Positions 1,700-56,229 of a stretch of 64,000 bases of DNA are shown in pieces. Within the stretch, counting starts at the first letter, position 1, and every line of letters begins with the position of its first letter. The notes beneath the pieces were generated by a model. That model did no database searches and had not been told where the DNA came from. It worked only from the letters and a program-made list of their open reading frames with translations. Source of the stretch: Raillietiella orientalis (taxonomy: Eukaryota). The stretch covers positions 2,976,001-3,040,000 of the forward strand of contig JAYWIR010000006.1 in NCBI GenBank assembly GCA_036172245.1. Direction: 5' to 3'. The position numbers were made by a program, and so were the translations under genes.

Positions 1700-3580
1700 T
1701 CTGGTTGCGCCACCGGCATTACGGAAGTACTCTGGTGTCCATCAGGAAGTGTGGTATTTCGAATGTTCTCCGGAAAACTTCGAGGGAGATCCGCCCACCT
1801 CCGCTGCGCTCCAAAGCTAGGTCTCTTTGGAGGGAACTCTCTAAATGCTAAAGAAACATTCGCCTTGGGGATCACGAAGCTCTTTGACGCTGTCCACGTC
1901 ACCAGAGGGTGCAAGTTACTCATCAAGTTAGGGGACACCCCGAGATGGGATCATCCTATGAATCCAGGAAGGCTCTGGAGGTAGGAGTCCGTTCCTTTCA
2001 CGCTTGGCAGGAGAGCCCCGGAAGGAACTCTCGTCCAGGTTGATCTCCTAAGGAAACCCCGAAGGGAACCTCTTCCTCATTCTCCTCAGAGGGACTCCCA
2101 GTTTGTAGGGAGAGCTCCTCGTCCCTTTTGCGGGGGGAGCCCGAAAGGGAACTACCCCTTTCTACGTCCTCTGAAGAGAACTCGGAAAGGACACTCCCAA
2201 TTTTCTCTGAGGGGTCACTCCTGAAGGGAGCAGCGCATTTCTTCACGTTCTGAAGAGGCAAGCCCCTGAGGGGGGCATTAGACAGCTCCATGGTGCTAGA
2301 TGAAGGGTCTCCCCAGAGACGGAAAGGAAGCATATCCGGAGGGGAACCCCGAAGGACTCATTGTTTCCTGGAAGGACCCGAAGAGGGGTCCACAACTTCC
2401 AATCCCAGAAGTCACTCAACGGTGGCATTCGGGGGTTTCTGGCTTCTACCAGCGCCGCACCAACTGCATGCTTCGGGAGATCCTGGAAGATTGCGTGGGC
2501 AGCCAGAACCTCTCACGCTGCCGTGCTGCCCTCCCTTGAGGAACACATGGGTAGCAGCTTACGGCTAGATGAGAGGTTACTGTGAAATCTTTAGAAGGAG
2601 AAGAGGACTGGGCAAGTGAACGACGGGCCGCCCGCTGATGCTGCGGTCCCGAGTGCGCGACCACATGGACTTTTTCTCTGGCGCGTGCTACTGGGTATTC
2701 CGGAGGAAGACCTGCAGTGATCCCGGTGCTCATGAACACCCGCACCCTCCTCTTGAAGTGGCAGTCGGCGTTCACACTGCTGCACTGGAGCCTCCCGTGC
2801 AATGCCCGCCGCCATCATTGGACACGGGTGTGTGGACTCAAACTGTGCAAGGTGCGGGGAGAGGGAATCCCTCCCACACCTCCTAGTAGACTGTGTTGCT
2901 CTCCGGCTCCTTTGCGGATGCTTTGCTGCGACCCTTGGAACCCCCGGTGGCAACGCCAGAGATGTTTCAAAGCGCCTCTTCCTGAGAGACGCCCTCACGC
3001 CGGCCGCATCCCTAGCAGCAGTATTCTGTTGCCTACGCGGCGGGACCGTGGCTGCATGGAGCAGCAACGCCAGAGGGCAAAACGACAGAAACGCCATTTA
3101 TTGTGCTCTCCTTTTCATGAGGACAGCGTCAAGATGTCTCATCTGGGAGTCTTGAAACAGGAACTTGCCGGCATCCTTACAAGGATGCAGAGGAAAGCAC
3201 CCGGTGATCCCTTCCCGAAAACCTCCATTTTTTGACTGCTTGTTTTATTTTTCTTTTTGCTTGTTTCCCCTTCCCCTGTGCTGCCGAGGTTTTCCCGCTT
3301 ACCTGAGTGCCAGTTCCCGGCAGGTTCCTTCTTGTATTCATAAATAACATGGCAGGATCAAACGTCCTGCCACAGATATGTATGTTTATTTTATAAATTA
3401 ACGCCCCGGCGTCATCGAGTGTCAACCAGTGCTGCACCCGAAGTCCGTAGGCCAACCAGAGTTGTCCTGCGGAGGGAACTCGTCACCCGTGACGCACCTT
3501 TAAATGGGTGCGTCGTGGATTCAAACGTATTCGGGTATTCGAACCTGCAACGCTTGATGCCACGCACGACCTCCAGCGAG
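1700..3580 (-). mobile_element. tRNA-headed SINE-like element, copy 1 (long-tail form), interrupted by a LINE at 2462-3424
   Basis: Head near 3525-3580 (ggtattcgaacc = reverse B box). Body 1850-2461 is homologous to the other copies (gaagctctttgacgctgtccacgtcacc, gaatccaggaaggctc). The extension below 1850 matches 29560-29690. Confidence 0.75.
2462..3424 (+). mobile_element. 5'-truncated L1/Tx1-type LINE (ORF2 C-terminus and 3' UTR) inserted into a SINE
   Basis: Zinc finger CARCGERESLPHLLVDC (ORF 2802-3155). 3' UTR shared with 25811-26170 and 30188-30678. Flanked by a 14-bp direct repeat: accagcgccgcacc (2448-2461) and accagtgctgcacc (3425-3438). Confidence 0.85.
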
Positions 3581-3649
3581 GGCGAGGTCTCCGGGCTTTG
3601 CATCGCGCACCAGCCGACGCGTCCTCGATAGCTCAAGGGATGTGGCGAT

Positions 3650-4850
3650 GCTCGTCATTCTGTTGGTGGCACCTCCCGCGCGGCAGAAGTCGTCCACCTC
3701 TTCCTCGTCCCTCCGATGAGTGGCAGGCTGTTTGTCTGTGTCTGAACGGCCTCGTTATGCTTCTTAAGAAGCAGGTGGCCGTGTCGTTGAGGATCTTGCC
3801 GAGGCAGATTTTTCCCAAGCGAGCATGATAGTAGCTCTTGGATGAAAGGTCCCCCCCCCCCCATACACACACAGACACACCACGCCACTTCCTGGTGCCA
3901 AGAAGCGTTCTTGTTGAAGGAGAGGCGAGGAATCTCAAAAGTCAGAGGCCCTTCAGCAGCAGCACGGAGAAGAAATTCGTCCACACCCGCATCCGCATGG
4001 AAGGGTCGAGGCATGACAGCCGCAATCGCGTCGCCTTCTTCGGCGGAATGAGCTCGGAAAAGGGGACAAGGGCGAGAGCTCCCCGCAACCTCGCCACGAT
4101 GGCCATGATCGCGTCGTGGGCGGACGGGCACGCGCGTCTTCTGCTGCCAAGTGAGGTGCCCAAAGGGAGGTGTGGAAGTGGTAGATGACTAGGGAAGCTC
4201 CCAAACTTCGAGCGTGGAGTCGAGGAAGCGTTGAGAAAGCGAAGAGCGTGAAAAAAGGAAGGCATCTGATGGAGAACGAGCTTTCTCAAGAACCGGAAGA
4301 ACGGTCGAGGGACCCCAGGTGGAAGCCCTGATTTTCTGCTGTCGAATCTGCAGCTCCCGTTCCTGCCAGTCTCTGCAGCTGCCTCCCAGTCCTACCTGCG
4401 ACTCCGAAACTCTCGGAACGATCAATCGAATTTCGTGCCAGCGATTCCTCGCGTCATCACCGTTAATGCAGGTACGTCAGAAAAAGTAGGAAGAGAGGGG
4501 GCGAGAGTCAGGGAAGAACATGGCGAGCATGGCGTTGGAGCCGTGATGAAGAGCACCACCATCTCAGGAGCTGCTTCCAGGATTCAGGGACATCAACAGC
4601 TCGAAAGGAAAGCAGATCAAGACGGCTGCTGCGAAGTTTGCAAGATGGAAAAGAACAAGTTGTTTCCTCGTTACGATGACAACCAGACCATCCATTTCGA
4701 TCCCGCGTAGCTGCCGTTCCCGTGCCGAAAGCCAACTGGGGCTGCTGGCTCCGCAGCCGCGAGCCAACCGGAGCGAGCGAATCCGAGTGCGACTTCTCTA
4801 CCCGACCGTGAAAATGGAACATGCTACATAGTCGTCGCAGAGACACTTCT
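3650..4850 (-). mobile_element. Decayed LINE AP-endonuclease region
   Basis: Minus-strand ARSPSDAFLFS (SRLDRFL-like) followed by FPSHLPL (SDH.PL-like); many frameshifts. Confidence 0.4.
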
Positions 4851-4859
4851 TCCTGTGGC

Positions 4860-5170
4860 GCTCTCCTCCTGCCGCATCCCTGTGGATGATGGAAAAATCC
4901 TTTTGGTTTCCGTTCTCACTTCCTTCCTTCCCGCTTCTTTTTTTTGTTGTTTCGGGTTTTCATTTTTTTTGGTTCTTTCCAGGAGTGCTGAAGAACCGCT
5001 CGCCTCCTCAGAAGGGGGGCTCTTAAACACCGCCCACACCGCATGAAGGTGAATGTGACTCTTCAAGTTATAGGAGGGACAACCCTATGAATCAAGGCAT
5101 CGATCCTTCCCCGGGAGGAATCCGAACCCGCGACACTCGGTGTTGCCCTTGGAAAGGCCGCCGCCACGAG
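4860..5170 (-). mobile_element. Internally deleted copy of the tRNA-headed SINE
   Basis: Head (gatccttccccgggaggaatccgaacccgcgac, ~5100-5135) is joined almost directly to the tail (ggagtgctgaagaaccgctcgc plus a T-rich run). The tail matches 11670-11800. Confidence 0.7.
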
Positions 5171-7169
5171 GCCGTCGACGCGGGCAGAAGAGCAAAAGCG
5201 CGAGGCGGAAGAGGAACCTGAGCCAGATCCGGGATGGAGGGAGGATTCCCGGCGACTCGGGGAGAATGCAGCACGAAGAAACCAAGGTTCTGGAAGACGC
5301 GGACCCCATCGAGGTCGCAAAGGCGATGCTGGCGAAGACCGGACGCTAGACGCGAGGAAGGGCGGACTCCCGGACAGAGAACAGGAAGGCCAACAGCCCA
5401 TGAGGAACCCCCCCGCGGAGCGGCACGACCCAGAGGCAGCGGCAGGATCCCAGTTGCAGCCGGCGGAATGCCCGAAAGCGGGAGCACAGGCAGGCGGGGC
5501 AGGACCGCCGCGAAGCGAAAGTCTTCGAGCAGGAAGCGGGACGAAAGGTGCCGGTCGGAGGACGGAATTGCTACCGCAACACGCCGGCTGCCTGCGTCCC
5601 GCTATCGGTTCCCTTGATCGTTTCGCTCTCGGGTCGTGCGTTCCACACTGACACGGAAACCCGGGCGAGCCATTAATTCCGGTTAAAGGATTTTCCATGG
5701 CCTTCTCTCCCAACCGGCTGCGAACCCGTAAAAGAACGGCGTCTTGCGTGCTCTGCTTGCCACGAGAAAGTCACGTGAGGAGCGCATTTCCCGGTCGAGT
5801 CCCCATTGGCCTCATTCAGCCCTAATAACAATCGTCTGCTTGCGATTGATCTTTCCTTGATGCCCGCTTTTCCACGCTTTTCGCAACGCATGATCGGAAT
5901 GCGGGGCCTTGCTGCAGCTCTTCCATCTTCCCATCAATTCTTCCGGACGTCAAGACCGAAAGCAGCGCTCTGTAATGCACACCTTCCTCACTGATGCTCT
6001 TCCCAGAGGAATACTGTGCTTCTCATAAATTTCCTTACGCCTATCATATTTGCTTACTGCTCTTCGCATCTTGTCGCTGAGGCGGTTACATTCTTATTTA
6101 AGGGTTTGTCACTGTCCTTCCTTCCTTCCCCCTTTCTTTATTTTCTTCTTTCCTGTCCCTCCTGTTTCTCTCTCTCTCTCGCGCTTCGTCTCGCTCGCTC
6201 CTCGGCCTCTCTGCTGCATCATCCATAATTCAGGCCTTCCTGGCAATTCACTCAGGAGCGCCGCAGTAGCCTTGCGCTGCGAACGCACAGGATGGCTTCC
6301 CTGGTCTCTTAAAGTGGGGACGCAGCCACGGTTCAGGGTACCATCTTGTATCCGTCAGGACATCCGTGATCTCTCGAGATAAGCACAGCTTCAGCCTCGG
6401 GGGAGGGGGGGAGGTGCACAGGAGGAGTGTGGAAGCATCAAGGAAGTGAACGCGGCGGTGACTTGTGAGCGTTTCCCTGCTCCAGCCTCTGGTCCTGGTT
6501 CCCAGGGAAACCCGAGCATGCTCTTTGGAGCTACGAGTTTTCCCCGAGCGCGCTCTCTCCGAGAGGGATGCGGAAGGGAGCGCGGGGCGAACGGATCGGG
6601 CAAGGTGCCCCGCACCACCTCTGCCACATCCGGGCATGCTCTGAAGTCTTCCAGCCGTTCATGCTGGGGTCAGAATTAGGTTGCCTCTGGCTTCGCCGTG
6701 GGAACTGGATCCTGCAGCGAATCGTGGGCAGCAGCCCTATTTCCAAACTCTGGGCTTTCCCTGGAAGCCTACCGCGCCCCGTCCCGACGCAGTCTCTTCT
6801 GACCTCTTCCGTAGTCGCCCTTGTCTCGCCTGGGAGGGTCTCCCGCCACGCCTTTGGAGCATTGCGGCCGGCTCTTCGCCATCACCACCTTCCGATCACG
6901 GAGGTGCGTGGGAGGCACGTGCGACATCCGCGACCGGGAACCCCCGCTGGCACCCTCTCTGCCAGTTCCCGACCTCTTCGAAATTTGGGAAGATTCGCTT
7001 CGAGGGAACCATGCGTCCCTGTTTGAACGACTCGTGGAGCGCGGAAGGGTTAGGCATCCTCCGTGCGAGGAACACGCTCCGGGCCTCGTCTTCCGCCACA
7101 GCACTGGCTCTGGAACCACGACCGCGCCGTAGACGCCCGCTCGATCCTTCCGACTGGGGAAAAAACTTT

Positions 7170-10100
7170 ATCCCGACATCCACCGTCCCGTGGATCTGAC
7201 GGCTCGCGGAACGAAAGAGCGGACCATCAACTCGTTAAGCCGACTGCAGCAGCGATGGGCCGATGATGACTGCGCTTTGATGTTCGCCCGAAAGTGGATC
7301 ATTCCGAGCACGAGCGCTCGAGGCTCCGAAGGAGGCATCGCGTTTCTGACGCCGCCAGCGTCAAGTCGGCGGGTTCTCGGAATGAGCTGCGTCCGAAAGA
7401 GGGGGACGCGTAATCAAAGGCGTATCCGGAGGGATCAGAGATACTGCGGCACGATGATCCCCGTCCGAACTTGGGAAGAGAGGAACCTGCACTCGGACGC
7501 TTCGCCGATCTTCGCGGCCGCTCTAGAAGAGCGGAGACCGCCAGGATGAACTCTCGGTCATCCCCGACGCATCTTGATGAATGGCACGCCCGTCTGAATC
7601 CGTTTATTAACGAGGGGGGATTTTCGTGGTCCACTCTCCTCCTCCCCCCCCACCTCGATCGGACTGAGTTCTCCCAAGGAGCATATGGGGAGGAGAACCA
7701 CATCCGATGTGCACCCACGGTTTCCTCTCAGTAGTGGCAGACTGCAGCTTCCAGATCGACGTTTCCCCTCGATTCGACGCTCGTTTCAACACGCCGGCGC
7801 CTCAGGTGGCAGTGACTCCGGAAAAATTCATTGCGCCCACACTCTTCTCATCCTTACGGGAGCAGGGAGTTCCTTTCGTCTGGACTTCCTTCCTTTAATT
7901 TGGGACCAGTCTCCTGGAGCGAATTCCCGAATCTCTCTCCCTCAAAAAAAACAAACAAACAAAAAAGAAAGATCGATTCGGTGCAAAACTACCTTCCTGG
8001 CTGCGAGGATTGCTCTTGTGAAGGGAACCCTGAAGAGGCCCAATTTCCCTGAAGGGAGCTCGCAGAAGGGAGCAGCGCGCTTCCTACACTCTGGAAAGGG
8101 AACCCGCGAGGGGGTTATCAACCATCTCCATGGTACGCGATAGAGGGGGTCTAGTTTCTTCTTGGGAAGGGAGACGGCTTCATTTTCTCAACCAGATGGA
8201 AATCCTGAAGGACCCCGGAGGGTCGCCTTCCAGTTCCGTCCACGCAACAAGGACATCCGCCTTCCACCAGTGTCGTACCCGAAAGGGATTAGAAAACGTC
8301 ATCTTGCTGGGGGCCTCGAAACCCGCGAGGCCCCCCCTTCATTTCTGAGTCCATCTTTCCCTGGGCGGGATTCGAACGCGCGACGTCCAATGTCCCGAGC
8401 GCGGAGAGACCGCAGCCACCACAGCCTCTAGCGTGGGTCCATCAGTGTCCTTCTCATCGCCTTCTATGATTTTCGCTGCACCCGGATCCCGTGAACCCCG
8501 GCGCGAGGCCAAGATTGAGGACCGTCACTCGTGCGACGATCGAACTCACCCTTCCTGCCGGCGCCCGTGGCGCTGCCGAGATCGCGCGATGCTTCGCAGC
8601 GCGCTTCCTCATCGCACCGGCAAAACACAGCCTGCGTCCGGGCCACACCGGCGGTTGCGAGCTGCTGCGGACGCTCTCCCGTCCCCTTGAAAGAGCCTCT
8701 CCAAAGATTATCTTCCCGGGAGATATTGCAGCTGATTAGGCCGGCGGCGAAGCGAGTCTGCGATGGCACCCAAGGGTGCCAAGTTTTCTTACTCCACGGA
8801 GCCGTTGCTCATCGATCAACGAGGAGAGGTAATGGAAATGAGTATCGGGAAGACAGTGGGCAGGAGCTGGTTGAACCATCTGGAGGAGAGATACTTTCGC
8901 CTCTAAAATTCTCTCTCTGCTGTTTGCCCTCCTTCCACGGGTTCATTCGTGGTCCTTGGCAACCCGCCGTGGTCAACGCTTTTCTTTTTCCTCTTTGTGT
9001 TACTCTTCATTTTCGTCCAAGGGAGAGCTCAAACCGCATCATCATATGGCTAGGAACCGCACTTCCTTCAGCATGGGAAAGCCGTCCACGTGGTCATATT
9101 CCGTACTCCTTTGCAAGGGATTAATCGAAACGCAGGATCACGATCTCTCTCGTCTCAATCTTCCGTCCTCCTCCTCTTTTCAAGGAAGGACACCACACCT
9201 CCAGGCGCGAAAACTCTTGCTCTCCTTCCGAGATGAACCTCTGGACCCCCAAGCAGAGTGGATCGACCGAAACGGAGACTGACTGCTCCAAGCAGACATA
9301 GTCTGCGACGCATCCTTTGCTGACACTAAGCGTTCCCCGAGCAAGAAAGGGTGGCTCCGCAGGCTTCTCGTCTTGCGTCGTCGAGTTGTCGGCCCTGTGC
9401 AAGAAACAATCGGCCTCCTCGAAAGGCGTCTGGATGGCCGAATTCTTTCTCCAAAGGGTCTGATCCTCAGTGCAGGTCGCTTCCTCGTGCAGACATCCAC
9501 GGGGGAGGTGGAGCGGGAGTTCGAGCGAGGGGGAGACGGAACGAACGAACGGAGCGGAGTCCTCACACCCCCTATGAAAGTGGACTGCAGCTCCGGTGGG
9601 TGACTACGCTGACCCGGACGAACGGCACTACACTGTCTACCCGCGAACAGTAATGTCTGACTCCAGGAAACCGCTCTCATGAGGGCGAGGAACCAAGAGA
9701 GATACAGGAATAGGTCCAGAGATTCCTGCACGGGCCTTACAGGAGCTGCTCGCTCCGGGAGATCCTCGAACATCTCGGAAAGAGTGAGTGGGCAGGAACA
9801 ACCTCCCTTACCGCAGCGCTGCCCTCCCTGAGGAAACACACGGGAAGCAGCATTCCGACAAGATGGGAGTCATCCACGGATATCTCCGTCAGGACAAAAG
9901 AACTGCGTTGAATGGATGACGGGCCAGCTTACTAATCCTGCGACCCCTGATCCTCCGATTCTGCTGTCCTCTGATTCCTCTGGGAACTCTTCGCCGCGAC
10001 CCTAGGAACCCCCCAGCGGCAACTCCAGGGACGCTCTGAAACCCCTTGTCGTTCGCGACGCCCCTCGACCCGCAGTCTCTCCAGCAGCTCTCTGCTGCCT

Positions 10101-10515
10101 AGGTGGGATGATAGCTATCTGGAACGATGCAAGAGGAGGGCACAGCGACAGTGCGTCATATCCACTTCGCCGTCCGCTTGATGAGGATGGTAACAAGATG
10201 GCCCCATCTGAAGGACTGTATACAGCAAGAGCTTGTCAGTATCCCCAAAAGGATGCAGAGAGCCATCCCCAGCAGGGCGCGACCCCTTCCCGCACCCCTC
10301 CTTCCCAAAGTTCATTTATTTATTATTATTTTTGTTTCGTTTTCTTTTTGTTTTCCCCTCCCCTCTGATGCCGTGGCTGACCTCACCGTCCTGCAAACAG
10401 GTAAGCTGGCAGGCTCCCATTGAAATTCACGTGGTTGGACCAGTGGTCTAACCACAATCTTTGTAGAATTTTTATTTTTACGTTAAACAAACGCCACGGC
10501 CCGCCCGGGTGACAA
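7170..10515 (+). mobile_element. Decayed L1/Tx1-type LINE ORF2 to 3' end, interrupted by a SINE at ~8020-8430
   Basis: Endonuclease motifs SARGSEGGIAFL (~7310) and an SRID-like segment (~7750). LQRLSSREILQLI..KRVCDG (~8700) resembles the pre-RT region. 9750-10350 is homologous to 2470-3290. Terminal hairpin acgccacggcccgcccgggtgacaac at ~10491-10516. Confidence 0.7.
8020..8430 (-). mobile_element. tRNA-headed SINE copy lacking its 3' part, empty LINE target site
   Basis: gggcgggattcgaacgcgcgac near 8365-8385; body homology; unoccupied site accagtgtcgtacc at 8266-8279. Confidence 0.7.
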
Positions 10516-10979
10516 CTGTGAAGGTGGAGTTGCCGGCAGCCAGTTTGTGGCCGGAACTCAAATAACCAACTCCAGCAGTGGCGCCTGTTGTCGACTTCCG
10601 TCTGATGGTTCCGGAGGCCTCGAGTCTTGGCTTTCCTGACCGTTCAGCAGGAAGACGGAGGTGGCTGCAGAGGTTAGAAAAGCTACGACTGCGTCGGAGC
10701 AAGTGAGAAGCTTTAGTGTTCGGCTGATCGGACGGGAGAACGTGAAAGCTCTCAAGAACGCATAGGAGGGAATTCCTTCCCAGTCCCAGGAGGGATCCTC
10801 CGATTCCGGCAGACCCCATATGCCGGGTGCGGTTCTTCCGATGGCCATAATTTAACTGCCTTGGAGTGGAAACACCGAGAAGATCCGACGAGCGGTCACG
10901 TTGGAGGCCGAATGCGTCTGGACACCGGGAGGCAGACACCCCTTTCTTGGGTAGCAGCCCGCAGTGCTTTAAGCGGGCG

Positions 10980-11800
10980 CCTTGGCGGCCGTGTGGCTGC
11001 GGCGGTATGCGCGCCACACGCGGAGTTGTCGATAGTTGCAGGTTCGGAAGAGTCGGCGCCGAGAACTGGAGTGCGTCATGGGTTTTGCGTTCTCCCCTCA
11101 GGAGACTCAAAACCCAAGACGCTGTTTGACTTGCAGACATCGAGTGCAGCACCATCGGAAGCAGCTGGAAACCCCAGGATGCCTCCGTTGAGTGACCAGC
11201 ATTGGAAGTTAACCCTTTGGGATCCTTTCAGGGCTGCTGAAGGAGCACCGATCCCCTTCGAGGTTCTCCTCTGGTTGTGCAAACTGAGTCTTTCCCTCCC
11301 CCTTTTGGTGGGACCCCTCTATCTCGTACCGTGGGACTGGTGGATTATGGATACCTCTCCAGAGTGTCCAAGAGGCACACTCTGCTCTCTTCCGGGTTCT
11401 CTTCAGAGAAGGAGCGGTCCCTTCTTGGGTTCCCCTAGGAGAAGAAACGAGGAGCGACGCTCAGCAACCAGGAGTTCCTCCAGAGACAACAAAAGGTTCC
11501 CTTCGGCTCCCTAACAAGCGTAAGAGGAACGGACTCCTTCCTCTAGAGCCTTCCTGGCTTCATAGGGGGTTACTCCTCTGGGGCTGCGCTGTATAAATTG
11601 AAGTCACACGCACCCTCGAGTGATGTAGGCAGTGTTAAAGAGCTTCGTGAGGCCTCCCATCCCGAGGAAGCGAACGGCTCTTCAGCACTCCTTGAGAAAC
11701 CCAAAAGGAAAAGAAAAAAAAAACTCGAAACAAAAAAAAAGCTGGATGGGAAGCAGAGAAACCAAAGGCTTCCCTTCTTCCTTCGTCAATAGGGACGCTG
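10980..11800 (+). mobile_element. tRNA-headed SINE copy, near full length
   Basis: Starts ttggcggccgtgtggctgcgg; degenerate B box ggttcgga at 11041; body gggttctcttcagagaagg...gaggaacggactccttc; A-rich run at 11695-11740. Confidence 0.75.
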
Positions 11801-11971
11801 TCTCCGTGAGATCGCTACTAACCTCTTCCTTTTTAAAAAAAAAAAAAAAAAAAAGTGGCAGACGTTTCTCGAAATTTCTATCTAAAACAACACGATCTCT
11901 CCATAGCGGAAGGCTGAGATGGGTTCCCGGGGCGACCGTGCACAAATCAGTGGAAGGGAGCCACAGGAAGT

Positions 11972-12830
11972 TTTCCACCCGGTTTTGCCCGGGGCATTCA
12001 TTATTAAACAAAATGATAGTGTTTAACAGTGGTGAAACACTTGGTGCCCGGAACTTTCATGACCGGTACGTAGACCGGCGAGGTCCGTTTCCACAGGAAG
12101 GGAAAACCGGGAAAAAAAAGAAACAGACAAAAAGGAAAAACGGGCGGAAAAGTTTCATTGGGGAGTTGGTGGGGACAGGGGATGGGATTACACTTCTCTG
12201 GGAGGCGTTCTCAACATCCTGTCCAGGATACTGAGAAGTTCCACCCATATCTTGCCCAGGTGGGGCCATCTCGAGGCGGTCTTGAATTGAATGCCGTACC
12301 TTCCATCCAGTTCTCTTCCGGTCTTCTACGCCGCCAGAGTTCCGCAAAGACTGCAGAGCATTGTGAGAGATGAGGCTGACGGCACAGGGACACTCGCAAA
12401 GAGGCGCCTGCAAATGTCCCTAAGGCCGTCAACCAGGATTCTCGTGTCCAGTGATGAGGGCGCGCTTTGCATGGGATTCCCCAGTGCACCACGAGCAACG
12501 CCAACACCTGCCACTCTAGGAGGAGGATGCCGCTGCTCCAGCACGCCGGAAGCCACTCCACCTCCTCTGGAGGTATTGCAAGCAGCTCGCCCTAGCGTAC
12601 AAGTCCTTTTCAGCTGGACACTCGAGCCACTGAAAGTCGGTCCAAGAAGAACGGCCACCAGGTGAGGAGGGTGGCGTGGGTGGACCTCCACGCCTTAGCA
12701 AACTTTGAGACCGGAGGCGGAAGGTCGCCTTGGTTCACCGGTTCTGACAAGACAGCATCCTTCCGGGCACGCAGTAGGGTCAGCACTGGTCGGCAATTTG
12801 ATCCAGGCCTCCTCTTCGCTACGATGGCCA
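11972..12830 (-). mobile_element. L1/Tx1-type LINE 3' fragment with its 3' terminus
   Basis: Reverse terminal hairpin cacccggttttgcccggggcatt (~11976-11998). Minus frame LLEWQVLALLVVHWGIPCKARPHHWTR is homologous to LLKWQSAFTLLHWSLPCNARRHHWTR at ~2750-2830. Confidence 0.75.
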
Positions 12831-14010: not shown

Positions 14011-14019
14011 GGGAAGCGG

Positions 14020-16009: not shown

Positions 16010-17296
16010 TTCTCACCCGGTAAAGCCGGGGCATTTATTATAAAAAATAATGGACTTACATGTGTAGCGCCGATGACCCTACATTGTCCGAAAATGCTCT
16101 GAACCTGCCGAGTAACTGGCACGCAGGCCGGCGAGGTTCCTCTCGGCAGCGGAGGGGGAGGGGCAAGCAAAAAATTAAAAATGAAAATAAAAAGTATATA
16201 CAGAAATTGAGAGGGTTAGGGAAAGGATCACCGGGTGCTGGAGGACGTCCTCTACATCCTTTCCAGGATGCTGGCAAGTTCCATCCGAGTATGCCCAGGT
16301 GGAGCCATCTTGCTGTCGTCCGCAGATAGCGTCCCTATCGCGCCACCCTCCTCTCGCCTCGCTCCAGACCGCCACAATCCCACGTAGGCAGCAGAGAACT
16401 GCTAGGGATGCGGCAGGCGAAAGGGCATCGCGCACGAAGAGGCGTTTCAACACGTCCCTGGGATTGCCCGTCGGTGCACCAAAGGCCGTTGCGCAACGCA
16501 ACCACAAGGGCCGGAGGGCAACACAGTCTACAAGCAAATGCGGGAAAGATTCCCGTTCCCCGCACCTGCAACAGTTGGGGTACACAGACTCCGAGTCCAG
16601 TGCGATCGGCGGGCGTTGCACGGGATACCCCAGTGCAACAGCACACCCTCCCCCTGCCACTTCAGATGGAGAACCCGGTTGTCCTTCAATGCCACTTCAG
16701 ATGGAGAACCCGGTTGTCCTTCAATGCCACTTCAGATGGAGAACCCGGTTGTCCTTCAACGCCGAGAGCCACCTGAGTTCTTCCTGTGGGATTCACGGCA
16801 GCTTACTCCAGCGCAGCAGTCCCTTTTGCGAGACACTTTGGGTCGCAGCGTCCGTGAGCTGGCATGTGGTCCAACCAACTAGTTCCCTCGTCTTCTGACT
16901 GGTTTCGCAAGTGACATCCCATTTGGCCGACTAGTTACTGCCCAGGTGCTTCCTGAGGGAGGACAGTGCCGCGGCTAGGGTGGTTCTTTGCGCCCGCGCC
17001 CACGTGGTGTGCTGCACGATGACGTCCTGCAGCGAGCGGCTGCTGCAGATGGGGTGCAGCAGTCGCTGCCGCATCTCCGGGCTCGCTTCGTTGTTCTTGG
17101 CCCACGTGCAGACGTTCAGGCTTCCTGCAGCCAGGCACTATCGTTCGCGGGCCGGCAGAAGATCCAGTTGTTGGTCCTGGTCAGCTTGGCCACCCATCGG
17201 AGCTCCAGCTCTCAGCTGGATACGTTGCGTGTGCGCCACCATTCCAGGAACGAAGACGGTCTCGCGTAGCTGGTGGCTCACTTGACCAGGTGTCGT
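16010..17296 (-). mobile_element. L1/Tx1-type LINE 3' half (left arm of the large inverted repeat)
   Basis: Zinc finger CCRCGERESFPHLLVDC (ORF 16175-16660); terminal hairpin cacccggtaaagccggggcatt at ~16014-16035. Confidence 0.85.
16656..16760. repeat. Tandem repeat, 3 x 35 bp (gccacttcagatggagaacccggttgtccttcaat)
   Basis: Units start at 16656, 16691 and 16726; mirrored at 21860-21964. Confidence 0.95.
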
Positions 17297-19436: not shown

Positions 19437-19711
19437 ACCCAACGGAGGCACATCTGTACAGATTCGGGACGTGACTTGGTCACCAGTGAAACACGTCTCT
19501 TAATAACTCTTAATAACGAGAGGGATGCATCCGATTCAAGTTCTTTCCACAAATGTCATCGAGTGGCGTCTTAAAACCGAAATCTGCTAACGCAGATGCT
19601 GCAAGAAGTGATTCAGCACAAGATAAATCCGTGACTGGAATAATAAACACGGGAAGATGAAAAACGAAGGGCGACCGAATTTACTCTAAAGTGTTCCAAC
19701 TTCAGAGGGTG
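19437..19711 (-). pseudogene. Possible decayed Ser/Thr protein kinase fragment
   Basis: In order on the minus strand: HPLKLEHF, 86-bp GT-AG segment 19599-19684, LADFG (DFG at 19576-19584), ICGKNLNRMHP, DVPPLG. Needs frameshifts to join. Confidence 0.25.
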
Positions 19712-20719
19712 TTCCTGAGTGGAGACTCGTTCTTTCTCACCAGCATTGCTGGCCGTTCCGTTATCTGCTTGCAGTGTAATTCATCCGAACGCGTGTCTTT
19801 CGTCCGGTTCTCATAGGATTTCTTTGATGGAAGCTAGATCTCAGGATGGAGGACCAGGGAGCACGGACGAGCCGCTTTGCTCTGCTTGGCAGAGCCATCA
19901 ACTTCCAATGGGAAAATACGCATGGATTTCAAAAGAAGCACTACTTTTGTCCGTAAATAAATGGTCCAGTGTTTGCCGTATCAGCATCAACCCCGAGAAT
20001 GGTCCACCCTTCCTTCGTGTTAGACTTTGTAATCTGGGGTCAGGTCAGTCCAAGTCCATGACACGACAGGAAATTAACGTTTCTAAGCTTGAAAACCGAT
20101 GTTCGCAGCAGAATAAGAAGGTATGAACCCGGTAAATGAATAAAAAAGGAAGGGAGGATAGGCACAGGGGTCTTTGGTTGAGGACGTCCTCTCTCTAGAA
20201 GTGGCTGTCAATGGTGGCGCTTCCTGGTGACTTCCGACAGATGAGACCACCTTGCTGCTGTCTCATGAGGGCTGTGGCCATGCTGGTGGCCTCTCTTCGC
20301 CGTGAACTTGATACTAACACATGGCAGACTGTCATTATGTCGCAAATGCAACCGATTGCTGCGATCACGGAGCCCTTCTTCAGTCCGCTTTCTGTGAAGA
20401 ATCGCCGCAGCAAGTCCGTTGCTGTGTCCTGCAGTAGACGGAGCGCCTGAGAGAATCTTCGCTACAACTTCTCGAGGGCACTGCAGTCCAACAAAAGTGT
20501 GGAAGCGATTCCATCGCCCTGCACCTTGAACAGCTCAAGGAAGGACAACTTTCCCGGAAACCAGGTGCCTACGCTGGTTGCACTGGAATCCCCAGTGCAG
20601 AAACAGCAGGAAGTCCCGTTTCCACCGCAGCAGGAACACGGAGGTATGAACTCACAAGGAAGGGACCACGAGTTCTTCAGGGCGCACACCAAGCAACCAG
20701 CGCCAACACCAGAGAGACT

Positions 20720-22610
20720 CTAGCTCGCTTGCCGCGCACCTGCCCAGGCACAGCTACTGTGTCGGCGTATGCGGACGATCTTCTGTTGCTGCTCCTCATG
20801 TCCAGCCCGGCGTTGGCGCTCGAAGATTTCTTCGATCTGTTAAGCCGCAGGACAGGGCTTGAGGTGAACTGGACGAAATCGTCCGGGGTAGCAGCCGGTT
20901 GGGCGCGGGCGAGGCAGCTGGACCGGATCAACTTGGAGATCCATGCGGTTCGGTACTTTAAGTACCTCGGTGTATTCTCCGGCGTTGGCGTGTCCAGCTG
21001 CCTCCAGAAGGCAGAGTCGCCAATTGACTTGTTTGGGGATGGCAAGTTTCTCTTGCCGGAACGAGCTGCGGTGTCGAACGCGTCTGTGACTCCCCTCTTC
21101 GCCCCCTGCTTTTTGTTTGCCCCCACCGAGTAGCGGACAAAGGACCTCCTGAGAATCGTCCAATGGGCATACAGAGGCTCTGAGTCCGTCGAAAGGATTT
21201 GTGCGCTCCTCGTCGCGACGAAGGCCTCGACCTCCTGACTCTGGAGCGCCTGGAGCGGCATTTCCAGTGTAGGACTCTCGCCCTAGTAGCGAAGCTTTGG
21301 AGCGAGAACTGGTGCGAGACCATACGACACTTGGTCAAGTGAGCCACCAGCTACGCGAGACCGTCTTCGTTCCTGGAATGGCGGCGCACACGCAACGTAT
21401 CCAGCTGAGAGCTGGAGCTCCGATGGGTGGCCAAGCTGACCAGGACCAACAACTGGATCTTCTGCCGGCCCGCGAACGATAGTGCCTGGCTGCAGGAAGC
21501 CTGAACGTCTGCACGTGGGCCAAGAACAACGAAGCGAGCCCGGAGATGCGGCAGCGACTGCTGCACCCCATCTGCAGCAGCCGCTCGCTGCAGGACGTCA
21601 TCGTGCAGCACACCACGTGGGCGCGGGCGCAAAGAACCACCCTAGCCGCGGCACTGCCCTCCCTCAGGAAGCACCTGGGCAGTAAGTAGTCGGCCAAATG
21701 GAATGTCACTTGCGAAACCAGTCAGAAGACGAGGGAACTAGTTGGTTGGACCACATGCCAGCTCACGGACGCTGCGACCCAAAGTGTCTCGCAAAAGGGA
21801 CTGCTGCGCTGGAGTAAGCTGCCGTGAATCCCACAGGAAGAACTCAGGTGGCTCTCGGCGTTGAAGGACAACCGGGTTCTCCATCTGAAGTGGCATTGAA
21901 GGACAACCGGGTTCTCCATCTGAAGTGGCATTGAAGGACAACCGGGTTCTCCATCCGAAGTGGCAGGGGGAGGGTGTGCTGTTGCACTGGGGTATCCCGT
22001 GCAACGCCCGCCGATCGCACTGGACTCGGAGTCTGTGTACCCCAACTGTTGCAGGTGCGGGGAACGGGAATCTTTCCCGCATTTGCTTGTAGACTGTGTT
22101 GCCCTCCGGCCCTTGTGGTTGCGTTGCGCAACGGCCTTTGGTGCACCGACGGGCAATCCCAGGGACGTGTTGAAACGCCTCTTCGTGCGCGATGCCCTTT
22201 CGCCTGCCGCATCCCTAGCAGTTCTCTGCTGCCTACGTGGGATTGTGGCGGTCTGGAGCGAGGCGAGAGGAGGGTGGCGCGATAGGGACGCTATCTGCGG
22301 ACGACAGCAAGATGGCTCCACCTGGGCATACTCGGATGGAACTTGCCAGCATCCTGGAAAGGATGTAGAGGACGTCCTCCAGCACCCGGTGATCCTTTCC
22401 CTAACCCTCTCAATTTCTGTATATACTTTTTATTTTCATTTTTAATTTTTTGCTTGCCCCTCCCCCTCCGCTGCCGAGAGGAACCTCGCCGGCCTGCGTG
22501 CCAGTTACTCGGCAGGTTCAGAGCATTTTCGGACAATGTAGGGTCATCGGCCCTACACATGTCAGTTCATTATTTTCATAAGAAACGTTACGGCGTTTCC
22601 ATGCGTAGAC
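20720..22610 (+). mobile_element. L1/Tx1-type LINE: RT catalytic region to 3' end (includes the right arm of the inverted repeat)
   Basis: VSAYADDLLLL...GLEVNWTKS...FKYLGV in ORF 20729-21133; zinc finger in ORF 21960-22445; diverged terminus aaacgttacggcgtttccatgcgtagac at ~22583-22610. Confidence 0.9.
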
Positions 22611-24869: not shown

Positions 24870-25460
24870 CGAACGGATCTGCTGCTCGAAATAGGAGGGT
24901 GAGTTGGCATGGCGAGCTGGGAGAAGTGCTCCGCCCGGCTCAAACTGCTTGCACGTTCGTCCATGTCACGGAGTCCTTCCCACCCTCGAAATCCGGAAAG
25001 AGATCGCTTCCTCGCTAGGCTTGCTTGCGTTCCGGAAAGGATGCTTTCGGCTCGGTGGTGCAATCGCCCTTCCAGGGGCGCTTATATCCTCGGCATTCCC
25101 TCCCCGCTGTCCGCTGATGCAGCAAACCCCGACGCCTCCAGATTCTACCCTCCCCGGGAAGGCCCAAGTCGATGGAATCCAGGGACGACGATGCGGAGCT
25201 CTCCGCGTCTTGCCGCTGCTCCTTCCGGAACGCCAAAGAGACACGCCCTCCTTCCATATTGCGTTGCAATGGGGCGACTGCTGGTTCGATCGCGACGAGG
25301 TTCCTGTTCGACCCGGGCAGAGCCGTTGAAAGATCCGTAGAAGCGTTCCAGTCTCCCGGATGGTGCCAGGTTGCTGCATGGGAGGTGATGCGACTGGTCG
25401 CAGAGAGCACTCTGCTCACGCGCGGTTGGCGCTCACGTGCGGCCAGTGCTTGCAGTAGCA
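24870..25460 (-). mobile_element. LINE AP-endonuclease fragment
   Basis: HHPGDWNAS (..GDFN-like) in ORF 25015-25461; otherwise degraded. Confidence 0.4.
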
Positions 25461-25639
25461 ATTAACAGCATAATTAACTCTAGAGAAAAATTCTTTTCGG
25501 ACTTCGTCAGCGAGCGCATCACATAATTCCCTTCGTTCCATTATTATTTATGATTGGAACCACCCATTCGCGAATGATAAGAAAACGTCAGGCACGAGTC
25601 TCGCGAAAGGCGGATTGCATGACGGCAGTCGACAGCGGC

Positions 25640-26690
25640 TGCCGCTTTGGCGGCCGCGTGGCTGCGGTCTCCGTGCGTGGCACCGAGAGTCGCGGGTTCG
25701 AATCCTGCATGGGGGAAGGATCGACTCCGAAAAGTCGCGCGAGTCGTGGCTTCCGAGTTTTCCCACAAGATAACGCTGGTTGGCCTACGGGCTTTGGGTG
25801 CAGCACTGATTGATACCCGGTCACGCCGGGGCGTTTATTTATCAAAAAAAAACGTCTGTGGCAGGACGTTTGATCCTTCCACGTTGCTTATAACTACGAA
25901 AAGAAACCTGTGGAAGCGGGGGGCGGCACGCAGGCCTGCAGGGTTCGTCTCGGCAACATGAGGGGAGGGGAGACAAACAAAAAGAGAAAAACAAGCCAAA
26001 AAAACTGCAGTCAAAAAAGATGAAACGAGGGGGGGTCTTGGGGAAGGGATCACTTTGTATTGGAGATCGCCCGCTGCATCCTTGTAAGGATACCGGCAAG
26101 TTTCTGTTTTATGGTTCCCAGATGGGGCCATCTTGACACTGTCCTCATGTAGAGGACAGCAAAATGGAAATGTATGGCACTGGTGGAAGCCGGATGTCAC
26201 CGTTGACAGGCTGGGATTCGAAGCTGACCCTCCGGAATCCTTCCAGGAATCAAGGATCCTTCGGGGTTCCCCTCCGGTCGTTGACATGGAGAAGGTTGAT
26301 TGATACCTCTCCAGAGTGTCAAGAAGCTCTCTGCTCCCTTCCGGGTTCTCTTCAGAGGAGTAAACAAGGAGCAGTTTCTTTCCGGGTTCCCTTAGAGAAG
26401 CTACCCCCACAAGTCGAGGGGTTCCTCTGGGGAGAACAAGGGAGAGGTTCCCTTTGGGATTCCTTCTCGAAGAGTAGGAGGAATGGACTCCTTCCTACGG
26501 AGCCTTCCTGGATTCATAGCGTGATGTCTTCCCGGAATACCCCTCATAACTTGGAGAGTAACGCGCACCCTCAGGTGGCGTGGGCGTCGTCAAAGAGCTT
26601 CGCGAGTCTCCCGTGAGGAGGCGAACGGTTCTTTAGCACTTTGCAAACCAAAAATAAAAAAAGAAAAAGGAAGGGGTTATGAAAACTTCC
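25640..26690 (+). mobile_element. tRNA-headed SINE copy interrupted by a LINE at 25811-26170
   Basis: Best-preserved head: tggcggccgcgtgg (A-box-like), ctccgtgcGTGgcaccgag stem-loop, B box GGTTCGAATCC at 25695-25705. Body resumes at 26171; A-rich run at 26645-26670. Confidence 0.8.
25811..26170 (-). mobile_element. Short 5'-truncated LINE (3' UTR and ORF2 end) inserted into a SINE
   Basis: Reverse complement of ~3090-3424. Flanked by ggtgcagcactgat (25797-25810) and tgtatggcactggt (26171-26184), degenerate copies of the target site. Confidence 0.8.
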
Positions 26691-28279
26691 AGGATCCGAG
26701 ACCCGCTGCTGGAATCCAGGAATAACAAAGCTTTGAGTTTTGCGACGCCAGACTTCCGAAACGACGAGCGGTGAGTCGCACAAGAACCTCAGCAGGGGAA
26801 TGCATCGGGTTCTCGAAGAAGATGGAACAGAATAGCAGCGAAAAATTCCAGAACTGAGGGGAGACTTTGAGGACCAGGCACTTCTTCTAGCATGGGACCG
26901 GATTCCAGCAAGCTTTGGGGGATAGGCAGAAAGAGGGCTTTAGAGAAAGACAGACCCTCAGAGGCGGAGGTAAGTTCTTAACCTGAATCTGGAAGCTAGA
27001 AAAGCGTGAGGATTCCGGGGAGGCAGCGACGGAGGACTCGCACAAGACAGCCGAAATGAGGTCGAGATGTCACTTCACCTTGGCTTCCTGAATCTTAGTC
27101 CCATCGTCCCATCAGTATAACAGAGGTGACCATTGAGTTGTTCAAGAAGTGAGCGATTAGCGAAGACAAAAGCCATGAAGACGCAGCACGGAGCAGAAAG
27201 TGTGCCTCCGGCGCTCGCACCTTCCGGGGAAGCTGTGCATGGCGATTCCTGATCGAGAAACATCATCTCGTTGAACAGCCCTGGGACTCCAGTCGGTTCC
27301 TCACCCACACTTTGCGGAATAGCACTCGACGCAGTTTATAATTTGGGGCTTCGGGAAGAGGAAGCGCCCGGCAAGGCTTCTCTACTTGACAAGAGTCATG
27401 GAGACATGGAGTCACACGGAGCTGGGAAACCGGATGAGCGGATGCTTCTCTTTTCCTCTTGCTTATCGTCTCCCTCTTTGCTGTAGTGTTTCCACAGCTT
27501 CTTGAAACTCAACCTGCCACGGTCTCTCGTCGAGGGCGTTCCGGTGCTTCGGGATTAACATGATCTGGTAATGACCATACGCTCGAGGGTTGCGAAACCC
27601 TCTAATTCTCAGAGACCCTGCCACTTCCGGTTCATGCCTTCCTTCCCCTCGTAGGTTCGAAATAGCTTCCGACTCGAATCCTAAACTCCAAGCTTGCTTA
27701 CTGTGCACTCTATGATTCCTTTTCAGTAGGCCGGAGGCCACTCTGATTGGAATCTTTGTGTAGGGTGCTGGACCATCACAGAGTGTCTCACTGCTGATCT
27801 AGCTCCGGACAGGGGGAAACAAAAGAACGCAGAGGGGAAAAAAAATGATTTGGGAAGGAAGACAAAGAAAGAATGTAATTCCGTGCAGCGAGCTCCTGCC
27901 AAGAAAGAGGTGAAGTTCTGGAGCAGTCAACGAAACAGAAGGTTCATCAGCACAGCTTGAGGTATTCACTCGAGGAGAGGTAGGTAGATGGATGACCGGT
28001 CTTTTCTGCTATTCTACCACGAGAAGAAGCCTAGATCCAGGAAGAGTGATTCCGTCTGTTCTGCTGACCACTGTCACCGGTTCGGTAATGAGAAAATCTT
28101 TTGGAGATCCTTCACCTCCCGTAGGGGAAACCTGGAATCCTTCCGGAAATGTAAATCGTAATCCTTGGGTCTTTTTCATGCTCTCAGTGCATGGAAACAG
28201 CTCTGGGATTCCAAACAGCACGTGCCCGGTGTAACAAACTCTCTTCTCCAAGGAAGCATTGGGGAAGATGTATTCTGAA

Positions 28280-28900
28280 TCAAGGGGGGATTGAAACTTC
28301 TAATAAAGAAAAAGGTCCCCCAGATACCAGGGACAAATGTCTCTTGGAGTCATCATCCGTCTTCTCAGGGGAAGTCGGCTGATATTTTGGTTGCAGAATT
28401 CCACAAGAAAAATTCGAGCTGTCAGCTTCACAGAACGCGCAGATATGTAAAGGGAGAGAGGATGGAGGAGAAGTTGACTCTGGGTGAATCCAAACCGAAT
28501 TTAAAATGCTGCAGCGAAAGAAACAAATCAAAGATGGGGAAAATCACCATGAGTTATCTTACGCGTGATGCGAGGAGACCTACGGCGCGCACTGTACAAC
28601 GGAGCAGCAGCAGGAAACCCTCAGGGTGCAGAAGCCACCTGACCGATCGGCAATCAAAGTGAGTCCGCCAGTTTACGTGAATTCCTTTGCTACTTCACCA
28701 CCTTCTAATCATCAGCTGACGCTGGATGTTAGAGGATCTGTGAATGAATTTTGATTTTGAAACCCAGTGGCATCGTTCGAAGGGGTTTCCAGCATCTTCA
28801 GAAGACACAGCTACCTGACAGGGATCCACCCATTCGTAAGGAAAATCTTCCTTTTCATTTTCTACTAGATGTCCGTAGAATGTTCTCTGAGGCGAGCGTA
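28280..28900 (-). pseudogene. Unidentified spliced gene remnant
   Basis: Minus-strand GT-AG segments with pyrimidine tracts at 28509-28562 (54 bp, gtaaga...ttctttcgctgcag) and 28738-28814 (77 bp); no coherent recognisable protein. Confidence 0.3.
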
Positions 28901-29289
28901 GCGTTCTGCTTGCACAACAGCATTACCAAGCCCTCTGAGTTTTCCGTCTTGCATCGTCCACAGCTCAAACCACCCGTCAGCGATCGTAGCTGTCCACTCA
29001 GAGGCTCCGGGCGCGAGCACGGAGCCCACTATGGCCAGGAAACTTGCGTTTGGGCGAACCGGACGTGTCGTCCCTCAAGGAGGAAGAACACCATCCAGAA
29101 CCGGCTGCCGGTTCCCGACTCGCGTTCTTGTGCGATACGTGTGGTAAATGCATGGAACCAAATTCTTCTCCCTCGTTCCCGGATGCCAAAGAGACCTGCT
29201 CTCTTAGTTTTTCTGGTTTTGGAATGTGAACTCCACACGCATTTCGCCACAGGGTGCTTCTCCAGTGTTGATTTTCACCTCGTTTCTGC

Positions 29290-30820
29290 TTCCATTTTTC
29301 TCAAACATTTTCTTTTCTTCTTTTTTAGAGATAGTCGGTGGCCACCGTCTGGGCAAGGTGCGGGTGCGCTCACTCGGAGGCCGTGCACCTGACGGTTGCC
29401 TTTGAGGTTCCCGAGGCGGCGCGCTTGGGAGGATCCCTTAGCAGACGAGGCAGGTGCACCGCCGTCTCTGCAACTCTCGGCTGATGGTGGGAGGGCGAGC
29501 TTGCTGAGACGAGACAGAGGGATGCGGCTTCGGCAGCGATGCGCCCGACGATGTCGTTCTCCAGGCTGCTCGTGGACCCCGCCCGAGGTACCAGTGAACC
29601 AATGCGCCTGCGCTGCACTCCGAAGGTGTAGGTCGCGCGACTCTCCGTCTTCCGGTTCGCTAAGTGCGGAAGAACCATTCGCCTGGGGTTCACGAAGCTC
29701 TTTGGCGCTGTCCATGCCGCCCGAGGGAGTGTGTCAACTCTTCAAGTTAGGGGACACCTCACGAATCCAGAAACCGGTTCAGGAGAAAGGAGTCTGTTCC
29801 TCTCTCACGCTCGGGAGGGGACCTTCCACTTTCTTGTATCCGAAGGGAACCCCGAAGACAATCTCTCCCTTGTTCTCTCTGGAGAGACCACCCGGTCTGT
29901 GGGAGCGCTCCTCATTTCTGCTCTGAAGGGAACCCGAAAAAGAGTCGTTCCTTGTTTCCTCATCTAAAGAGAAACCGAAAGGAATGCTTCCCAATTTTCT
30001 CCGAGGAGTCACTCCTGAAGGGAGCAGTGAGCTTCTTCACGCTCTGGAGGAACAACCCCCCGAGGAGGGAATCAAAAAGCTCCATGGTACGCGATGAGAA
30101 AGATGGGAGGGCAACTCCGTTTTCACAACCGGAAAGGATTCAGAAGGAAACCGACCATTTCGTTCCTGGAAGGATCCCAGAGGGGACGCTTTGCTGCGAC
30201 CCTTGGAACCCCCGGCGGCAACGCCAGAGACGTTTCAAAGCGTCTCCCTGCGCGACGCTTTACGCAGCCGCATCTCCAACAGCACTTTGCTGCCCACGAG
30301 CAACGATCCTGTGGATGCATGGAGCAACGCCAGAGGAGGTCAGATCGACAGGGACCCACTTGTTCTTCTGTCCTCTTCATGAGGATAGCGTCAAGATAGC
30401 CCCATCTGGGATTCTTGAAACAGGAACTCGCCGGCATCCTTACAAAGATGCAGAGGACGCCTTACAGCACCCGGTGATCGCTTCCCGAGTTTTGACCGTT
30501 TGTTTTATTTTTTCTTTTTGTTTGTCTCCCCTTCCTCTGTGCTGTCGAGGTTTTCCCGCTGGCCTGCGTGCCAGTGGGTCCCTTTTCGTATTCATAAGTA
30601 ACGTGGCAGGATCAAACCTCCTGCCACAGACATGTATGTTTATTTTATAAATAAATGTCCTGGCGCGACCGGGTGTCAACCAGTGCCGCACCCGAAGCTC
30701 GTAGGCCAGCCAGCGTTATCTTGAGGGGGAACTCGAAACCCACGACTCACCCACTTCTCGGAGTGGATCCTTCCCCGGCGGGATTCGAACCCGCGACGCA
30801 CGGTGCCACCCTCCGAGACC
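29290..30820 (-). mobile_element. tRNA-headed SINE (long-tail form) interrupted by a LINE at 30188-30678
   Basis: Head ggattcgaacccgcgacgcacggtgccac at 30781-30809; body 29690-30187; extension 29560-29690 homologous to 1760-1860; T-rich end at ~29300-29325. Confidence 0.75.
30188..30678 (+). mobile_element. 5'-truncated LINE inserted into a SINE
   Basis: Homologous to 2920-3424 (ctttgctgcgacccttggaacccccgg...). Ends gaccgggtgtca immediately before accagtgccgcacc (30679-30692). Confidence 0.85.
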
Positions 30821-35820: not shown

Positions 35821-35829
35821 AACTGACTT

Positions 35830-56215: not shown

Positions 56216-56229
56216 TCAGAGAATGCCGT

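Follow-up and report, generated by a model that had tools for sequence, protein, structure and literature searches.

The 64,000-nucleotide stretch of the Raillietiella orientalis genome analyzed here (assembly GCA_036172245.1, contig JAYWIR010000006.1, positions 2,976,001 to 3,040,000; referred to below as the window, with positions counted from its first nucleotide) carries dispersed copies of a short interspersed element (SINE) and several 3' ends of a long interspersed element (LINE), three of which lie within SINE copies at one and the same base. The window DNA is eukaryotic and has a G+C content of 52.5%; CpG is not depleted (observed/expected ratio, 0.89), and TpA is strongly depleted (0.46). 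All LINE and SINE counts and the site specificity given below refer to this single 64-kb window.

A SINE profile of 781 positions was built from the window copies, and an nhmmer search of the window with this profile identified nine copies, eight of them informative and one with an internal deletion, of an element of ~780 bp, which is long for the SINE class. The nine copies are dispersed and lie in both orientations (Table 1). The 5'-terminal ~85 positions are tRNA-like. A T-arm/B-box-like sequence, GGTTCGAATCC, is found in five of the eight heads and is degraded in c2, c3, and c7, and a scan of three SINE copies with the Rfam tRNA model at a permissive threshold matched one of them, the head of c4, over the full length of the model (25641 to 25716; 13.1 bits, below the gathering score of 29; E value, 5). 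Copies c3, c4, and c6 have a recognizable A-rich tail, and no target site duplications (TSDs) of the SINE copies themselves were found. Since the copies share only 51% to 71% pairwise identity, the family must be old. The 3' two-thirds of the element consist of degenerate units of ~25 to 50 nucleotides with GGTTCCCTTCGGG-like motifs (e.g., 26300 to 26700 and 35400 to 35800), and because the copies differ by whole units, the SINE alignment and tree are unreliable. In the ninth copy, profile positions 4 to 85 are joined to positions 609 to 754, which has removed the LINE target site.

Five of the informative copies (c2, c3, c6, c7, and c8) run continuously through a 14-bp site and are thus empty, and the other three (c1, c4, and c5) are filled there by a LINE 3' fragment, in agreement with the counts of a first-pass annotation of the same DNA. 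The three fragments share an upstream hairpin, TGGCAGGA-TCAAACG-TCCTGCCA, which defines the LINE 3' ends called subfamily A here (LINE-A). A search for this hairpin (TGGCAGGATCAAACGTCCTGCCA) with up to three mismatches returned the three filled loci only, and shuffled sequences are expected to give none. All three inserts run antisense to the SINE, and their 3' ends fall on one and the same base (...GTGTCA/ACCAGTGC, where the slash marks the junction), as had been proposed. The junctions were read directly as ...cgagtgtca/ACCAGTGCTGCACC in c1 (3424/3425), ...cgggtatca/ATCAGTGCTGCACC on the reverse strand in c4 (25811/25810), and ...cgggtgtca/ACCAGTGCCGCACC in c5 (30678/30679). The inserts of c1, c4, and c5 differ in length, as previously noted (963, 360, and 495 bp), and start at positions 2, 401, and 219, respectively, of the LINE profile. 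The longest contains an open reading frame (ORF) segment with a CCHC motif (2757 to 3152) and a 3' untranslated region (UTR) of ~270 nucleotides. With up to two mismatches, the site ACCAGTGCCGCACC was matched seven times in the window (0.23 matches expected; seven reached in none of 100 shuffles), with starts at 2448, 3425, 8266, 25797 (reverse), 30679, and 35172 (reverse) and a seventh, inside the c1 head at 3485, that falls outside the pattern. The probability that insertions hit the same base in the same orientation by chance is negligible: given insertion within a SINE, it is ~4e-7 for two further same-base, same-strand matches and ~6e-4 for one, the latter value not yet counting that both inserts landed in the SINE, which makes up about a tenth of the window.

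The target site is duplicated in two of the filled copies. In c1, positions 2448 to 2461 (ACCAGCGCCGCACC) and 3425 to 3438 are identical at 12 of 14 nucleotides, and both differences are transitions. In c4, the duplication at 26171 to 26184, read on the reverse strand, is ACCAGTGCCATACA, which agrees with the site consensus at 11 of 14 positions and with its partner at 9 of 14. The SINE profile aligns across both duplications, the heads covering profile positions 4 to 170 and the tails starting at position 154 in c1 and 155 in c4, and because of these overlaps (17 and 16 positions, respectively) we consider both duplications genuine. The first-pass annotation had described the site as duplicated against two different 5' truncation points; this holds well for c1, but the evidence in c4 is weaker than was implied. 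In c5, the tail starts at profile position 216, and 45 target positions are deleted without any duplication.

Table 1. SINE copies and LINE 3' fragments in the window (coordinates are window positions)
Feature	Coordinates	Strand	Remarks
SINE c1	1797-3603	-	Filled
SINE c1, part 3' of site (profile 154-778)	1797-2461	-	nhmmer E value 1.9e-158 and sequence reading; includes left TSD copy, 2448-2461
LINE-A fragment 1, 963 bp	2462-3424	+	Decayed ORF2 C terminus; hairpin 3350-3372 (+)
SINE c1, tRNA-like head to site (profile 4-170)	3425-3603	-	Right TSD copy, 3425-3438
SINE, ninth copy, internal deletion	4955-5179	-	Site region absent, uninformative
SINE c2	7777-8432	-	Site empty, 8266-8279
Non-A LINE 3' fragment La	9760-10515	+	Own upstream hairpin, same terminal hairpin; flank not SINE
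SINE c3	10981-11757	+	Site empty; A-rich tail
Non-A LINE 3' fragment Ld	11973-12578	-	Flank not SINE site
Non-A LINE 3' fragment Lb	16010-17296	-	Arm of 99% inverted duplication; flank not SINE
Non-A LINE copy Lc	20438-22600	+	Decayed C-terminal part of reverse transcriptase (YADD), CCHC; source of protein queries
SINE c4	25646-26702	+	Filled
SINE c4, head to site (profile 4-170)	25646-25810	+	TSD copy, 25797-25810
LINE-A fragment 2, 360 bp	25811-26170	-	Hairpin 25859-25881 (-)
SINE c4, part 3' of site (profile 155-774)	26171-26702	+	Starts with second TSD copy, 26171-26184
SINE c5	29606-30837	-	Filled
SINE c5, part 3' of site (profile 216-778)	29606-30183	-	45 profile positions missing beside site; no TSD
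LINE-A fragment 3, 495 bp	30184-30678	+	Hairpin 30604-30626 (+); 5' junction ambiguous within 30174-30185
SINE c5, head to site (profile 7-170)	30679-30837	-	Site 30679-30692, exact match
SINE c6	34999-35846	+	Site empty, 35172-35185
SINE c7	55532-56250	+	Site empty
SINE c8	63324-63986	+	Site empty; cut by window end

A search of the window with a profile of the LINE 3' region (E value of ≤1) gave 13 pieces, seven of which reach or nearly reach the 3' end: those ending at 3426, 30680, 10515, and ~22600 on the forward strand and at 25810, 16010, and 11973 on the reverse strand. Because the 16010 and 22600 ends belong to the two arms of one inverted duplication (99% identity), these represent six independent ends, three of them non-A. 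Thus, of the four LINE ends that the first-pass annotation had placed elsewhere, none is in a SINE, as it had stated, but only three are independent. All three A-type ends are in the SINE site, compared with none of the three independent non-A ends, for which TSDs were sought and not found. The inverted duplication itself (16044 to 17296 and 21324 to 22576; 1,253 nucleotides, with a spacer of 4,027 nucleotides) covers the 3' portion of a LINE copy of the non-A type and is far younger than the neighboring repeats. Its arms diverge ~25 nucleotides before the LINE 3' end, so that the authentic terminal hairpin is present only at the 16010 arm. A run of ~30 A/T bases (11830 to 11862) lies between SINE c3 and the 3' end of fragment Ld.

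All LINE ends share a terminal motif, ...AA(C/T)GCCCCGG-N5-CCGGGTG, followed by 3 to 5 bases. In LINE-A, there is no poly(A); the terminal stem-loop CCCGG-N5-CCGGG is followed by TGTCA, and a second, subfamily-specific stem-loop is located upstream. Folding of the six-copy consensus predicts the terminal hairpin, three of whose five pairs are kept by all six copies; it appears in five of the six single folds (4 to 6 pairs), the c1 hairpin having decayed. At the equivalent upstream place, the non-A copies have a hairpin of different sequence (clear in La, present in Lb, and weak in Ld), and short A runs terminate the non-A subfamilies. In the LINE tree, the A copies group as a clade (support, 96/96); they are old, with 15% to 21% pairwise mismatch.

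In the window's 247 stop-to-stop ORFs (≥100 amino acids), Pfam models gave just two matches, a weak RVT_1 and a COX1 fragment. The best-preserved piece of the LINE reverse transcriptase (RT) is at 20438 to 21130 (P0001, with the motif YADD), and its RVT_1 match is weak (E value, 0.0019). The only close relative of the window RT among 1.84 billion representative proteins is P0007, a nameless metagenomic fragment of 619 amino acids from a 2,870-bp contig, which forms a cluster by itself and shares 56% identity with P0001 and 65% to 67% identity with other stretches of copy Lc. A scan of the metagenome contig collection did not return the source contig of P0007. This protein matches RVT_1 with an E value of 4.7e-24 and human L1 ORF2p with an E value of 7e-40, compared with 7e-17 or weaker for R2 proteins. 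Its full-length relatives, from ticks, lizards, frogs, plants, and fungi, are 23% to 31% identical, and most of those at 28% to 30% identity carry the domains Exo_endo_phos (PF03372), RVT_1, and zf-RVT; in the near-length search, nothing except P0007 itself was nearer than 32% identity. The C-terminal fragment P0004 gave no match in a word-indexed protein search, and the ESM Atlas returned generic RT clusters only.

The window LINE copies also have a C-x2-C...H-x4-C motif ~85 residues before the stop, which aligns with the zf-RVT region of the tick protein P0022 (E value, 3e-4); the Pfam zf-RVT model did not match the decayed window ORFs at an E value of ≤0.01. No further domain follows the CCHC motif, and the ORF ends ~85 residues later. 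R2-type features are therefore lacking, as the RT matches L1 far better and nothing is found C-terminal to the CCHC motif. Because P0007 is best matched by human L1 ORF2p, its relatives combine an apurinic/apyrimidinic endonuclease (APE) with RT and zf-RVT, and the CCHC motif is kept, the LINE is assigned on sequence comparison to the L1/Tx1 group of APE-type LINEs. The first-pass annotation had cited Tx1-clade elements as precedents; the placement is shown at the level of the L1/Tx1 group, and the narrower Tx1 label is not established. The name "TX1" is attached to one relative, the plant protein P0131, by automatic labeling only, and to an ESM Atlas cluster whose score, 0.88, makes it no more than a lead.

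The intact 3' ends, the variable 5' truncation, and the presence of either a TSD or a target deletion point to insertion by target-primed reverse transcription (TPRT). The explanation that we favor, and hold to be probable, is that a now-decayed subfamily A of an L1/Tx1-group APE-type LINE integrated by TPRT at one specific SINE site, always in antisense orientation. Judging from the junction, the first nick would be in the sense strand of the SINE, at 5'-GGTGCGGCACTGGT^GGAAGC-3', and a second cut 14 bp from it would produce the 14-bp TSD. The LINE's own endonuclease presumably recognizes the SINE site, and its RT may recognize the structured 3' UTR, as in LINEs of the stringent type. By using a dispersed SINE with many copies, the LINE would spare host genes, and the SINE target could act as a safe haven. 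At the nick site, in SINE sense, the sequence is ...CTGGT^GG in the filled copies and the empty c2, ...GGC^G(G/A) in the empty c6, c7, and c8, with ...CTGGC^GG as the form in c6 and c7, and ...CATC^GG in the empty c3. Exact-site recognition would account for this pattern, and so, equally well, would later decay of CpG or an effect of SINE subfamily.

There is good support for two or more independent insertions at one base with a fixed orientation. The ~14-bp TSDs adjoin two different 5' truncation points, one in c1 and one in c4, the c5 insert has yet another 5' junction, with a target deletion, and no homology was found between the filled loci beyond the SINE borders; segmental duplication of the filled loci was rejected because their flanks lack homology. 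The hosts themselves also differ. An indel of ~12 nucleotides beside the site occurs in its long form in host c1 and in its short form in host c4, and a block of ~50 nucleotides is present in c1 and c5 and absent from c4; both states of each indel are common to different empty copies. The terminal branches are shorter for LINE-A (0.08 to 0.14) than for the host SINEs (0.19 to 0.26). We have high confidence that c1 and c4 are independent events. Insert c5 is probably another, with common descent with c1 as the alternative. The first-pass annotation had taken all three insertions as independent, which is not established for c5 relative to c1, the two being paired in both trees.

It is also conceivable, although in our view unlikely, that LINE-A inserted only once and that the composite was multiplied by retroposition or duplication, later deletions giving the three lengths. 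Several observations count against the favored explanation, and some of them suit such a composite. (i) The star-like SINE tree has, in its maximum likelihood (ML) topology, a branch that sets the three filled copies apart, and clustering as tight as theirs was obtained in only 19 of 500 label shuffles. The first-pass annotation had named a single clade of filled SINEs as evidence against its proposal; the support for this branch, 18/0, neither establishes nor excludes such a clade. (ii) The pairing of c1 with c5 in the SINE tree (84/96) recurs in the LINE tree (98/96), and both trees have the shape ((c1,c5),c4), as expected from amplification of a filled composite. (iii) In the pairs c1-c4 and c4-c5, LINE and SINE parts have diverged alike (p, 0.37 to 0.66). 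(iv) c5 has no TSD, and one deletion of ~520 bp over the 5' junction could turn a c1-like copy into c5. (v) In c4, the left TSD copy has degraded, and the host-distinguishing indels are flanked by short direct repeats and could have arisen more than once. (vi) Only three events are available, all of them old and in one 64-kb window. (vii) No endonuclease domain was seen in the window copies, which are 3' fragments only, and P0007 starts after the APE region.

Several features do not fit the single composite. c4 has a TSD copy at its own truncation point, and the chance that a deletion would stop so near the edge of an old TSD is ~1% (an estimate, not a computed value). Parts copied together should be equally similar, but c1 and c5 are 85.1% identical (411/483) in their LINE parts and 75.5% identical (428/567) in their SINE parts (p, 1e-4). 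Two indels that are common to empty copies set host c4 apart from c1 and c5, and the flanks of the filled loci are unrelated. In addition, the T-runs that an antisense insert places in the SINE sense strand would be expected to stop RNA polymerase III, which would argue against retroposition of a filled copy.

A further possibility, likewise improbable, is that the target rather than the LINE determines the position, the site being a nick-prone or accessible hot spot or the A transcripts being guided to it by homology through transduced SINE sequence. The hot spot implies that any LINE of the family could land there, and the site was used by none of the three independent non-A ends, although the comparison of three A with three non-A ends is a small sample. 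One base of microhomology, an A that may derive from either the LINE or the target, is present at the 3' junction and would suit homology-guided insertion; read-through-assisted precise priming has been described for site-specific LINEs, and cotranscription with the target has been mentioned (PMC4494074). However, insertion is in one orientation only, the regular 14-bp stagger speaks for nicking at two positions defined by an enzyme, and Rfam recognizes no known small-RNA-derived segment at the site. Chance coincidence or an alignment artifact can be dismissed, as nothing beyond the small sample speaks for it and it is refuted by the directly read junctions, together with the site and hairpin counts in shuffled sequence and the coincidence probability given above.

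Other candidates were rejected. A template-switch chimera or a 3' transduction does not agree with a LINE that is antisense to a SINE colinear on both sides with a TSD. Derivation of the target from a small-RNA gene was discarded for want of an Rfam match beyond the weak tRNA head, and a dinoflagellate spliced-leader relic was discarded after 0 matches.

Beyond site-specific integration of LINE-A, a closed loop can be imagined in which the SINE was mobilized by LINEs of this family that tolerate poly(A) and one subfamily retuned its endonuclease to the SINE as its sole landing pad. Such mobilization is suggested by the short A runs at the ends of the non-A subfamilies and by the A-rich SINE tail, but we regard the full loop as a highly speculative and very unlikely extension.

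ARAGORN predicted no tRNA genes in the window, and Rfam gave no matches at the gathering threshold across it. Neither the LINE nor the SINE was found in the metagenome, viral, and prokaryote contig collections: (i) the LINE-A hairpin motif had no match in metagenome contigs; (ii) P0007 matched seven loci in metagenome contigs, all distant RTs with 22% to 35% identity except for one stretch of 28 residues with 61%, and none in viral contigs; and (iii) the 18-nucleotide junction pattern matched 28 times in prokaryote genome contigs, approximately the number estimated for chance, and the LINE and SINE profiles had no match in 35 fetched prokaryote loci.

The window also contains a nuclear copy of a mitochondrial cox1 fragment (52547 to 52801, reverse strand; Pfam COX1 E value, 8.7e-06), which is in frame only when TGA is read as Trp and whose best solved-structure matches are COX1 chains (E value, 2.8e-28). 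Because ATA occurs at a COX1 Met position, the donor is suggested to have used an animal-type or yeast-type mitochondrial code. A 24-bp tandem repeat (4.2 copies; 52450 to 52551) directly adjoins the fragment.

That an APE-type LINE can home to another mobile element is already established (PMC4494074). Many Tx1 elements are target specific, and Tx1 inserts into the piggyBac-type element Tx1D (Kojima 2015, PMC4494074). In crocodilians, Tx1-Mar inserts into Mariner-N4_AMi, and the SINE SINEU-3 targets the same element with an expected TSD of 16 bp; Tx1-9_AMi is found in Harbinger transposons, and Tx1-8_Crp and Tx1-4_AMi are found in long terminal repeat (LTR) retrotransposons (PMC4494074). Other families use host sequences: Keno targets U2 small nuclear RNA (snRNA) genes, and Kibi and Koshi target microsatellites (PMC4494074); Mutsu targets 5S rRNA genes, and Dewa targets the tRNA-Leu spacer (PMC3706591); and R1 and R2 target ribosomal DNA (rDNA) (PMC4494074; PMC3706591).

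Tx1-Mar resembles LINE-A in several described features: both are APE-type LINEs that target a single position in a mobile element present in many dispersed copies, not in a gene array, both have a long TSD of fixed sequence (16 bp in Tx1-Mar and 14 bp in LINE-A), and insertions opposite to the target orientation are reported for Tx1-Mar as well. However, the LINE-A target is a retroposon and not a DNA transposon, LINE-A has stem-loops at its end instead of poly(A), a dependent SINE with the same target preference was not seen for it in the window, and its evidence consists of three copies in 64 kb rather than a genome census. Tx1L in Tx1D of Xenopus, Tx1-9_AMi, Tx1-8_Crp, and Tx1-4_AMi likewise use another transposable element as a landing pad, but none of the targets named for them in the available part of that account (PMC4494074) is a SINE, the comparison being one of target type and not of sequence. 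With Keno, Mutsu, Dewa, Kibi, Koshi, R1, and R2, LINE-A shares sequence-specific integration into a multicopy sequence, whereas their targets are host RNA genes or microsatellites, and R2-type elements use a restriction-like endonuclease. By analogy, LINE-A is also comparable to the stringent-type lineage of monocot L1 elements, in which a conserved 3' RNA structure appears to take the place of the poly(A) tail; the available part of the description of that lineage does not report target specificity (PMC3472496). Our literature search, outside which Repbase Reports and most subscription journals lay, found no published LINE that homes to a SINE.

Target-specific LINEs are a model of how an element can persist at a high copy number without hitting genes, and their endonucleases are studied as tools for targeted DNA insertion. 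The published landing pads comprise rDNA, snRNA genes, tRNA spacers, 5S genes, microsatellites, DNA transposons, and LTR elements (PMC4494074; PMC3706591). If our interpretation is correct, a LINE dedicated to a SINE would add retroposons to this list, and a defined 14-bp site together with a structured, poly(A)-less 3' UTR would be available for biochemistry. Were the closed loop also true, the parasite's own parasite would be the safe harbor of the LINE.

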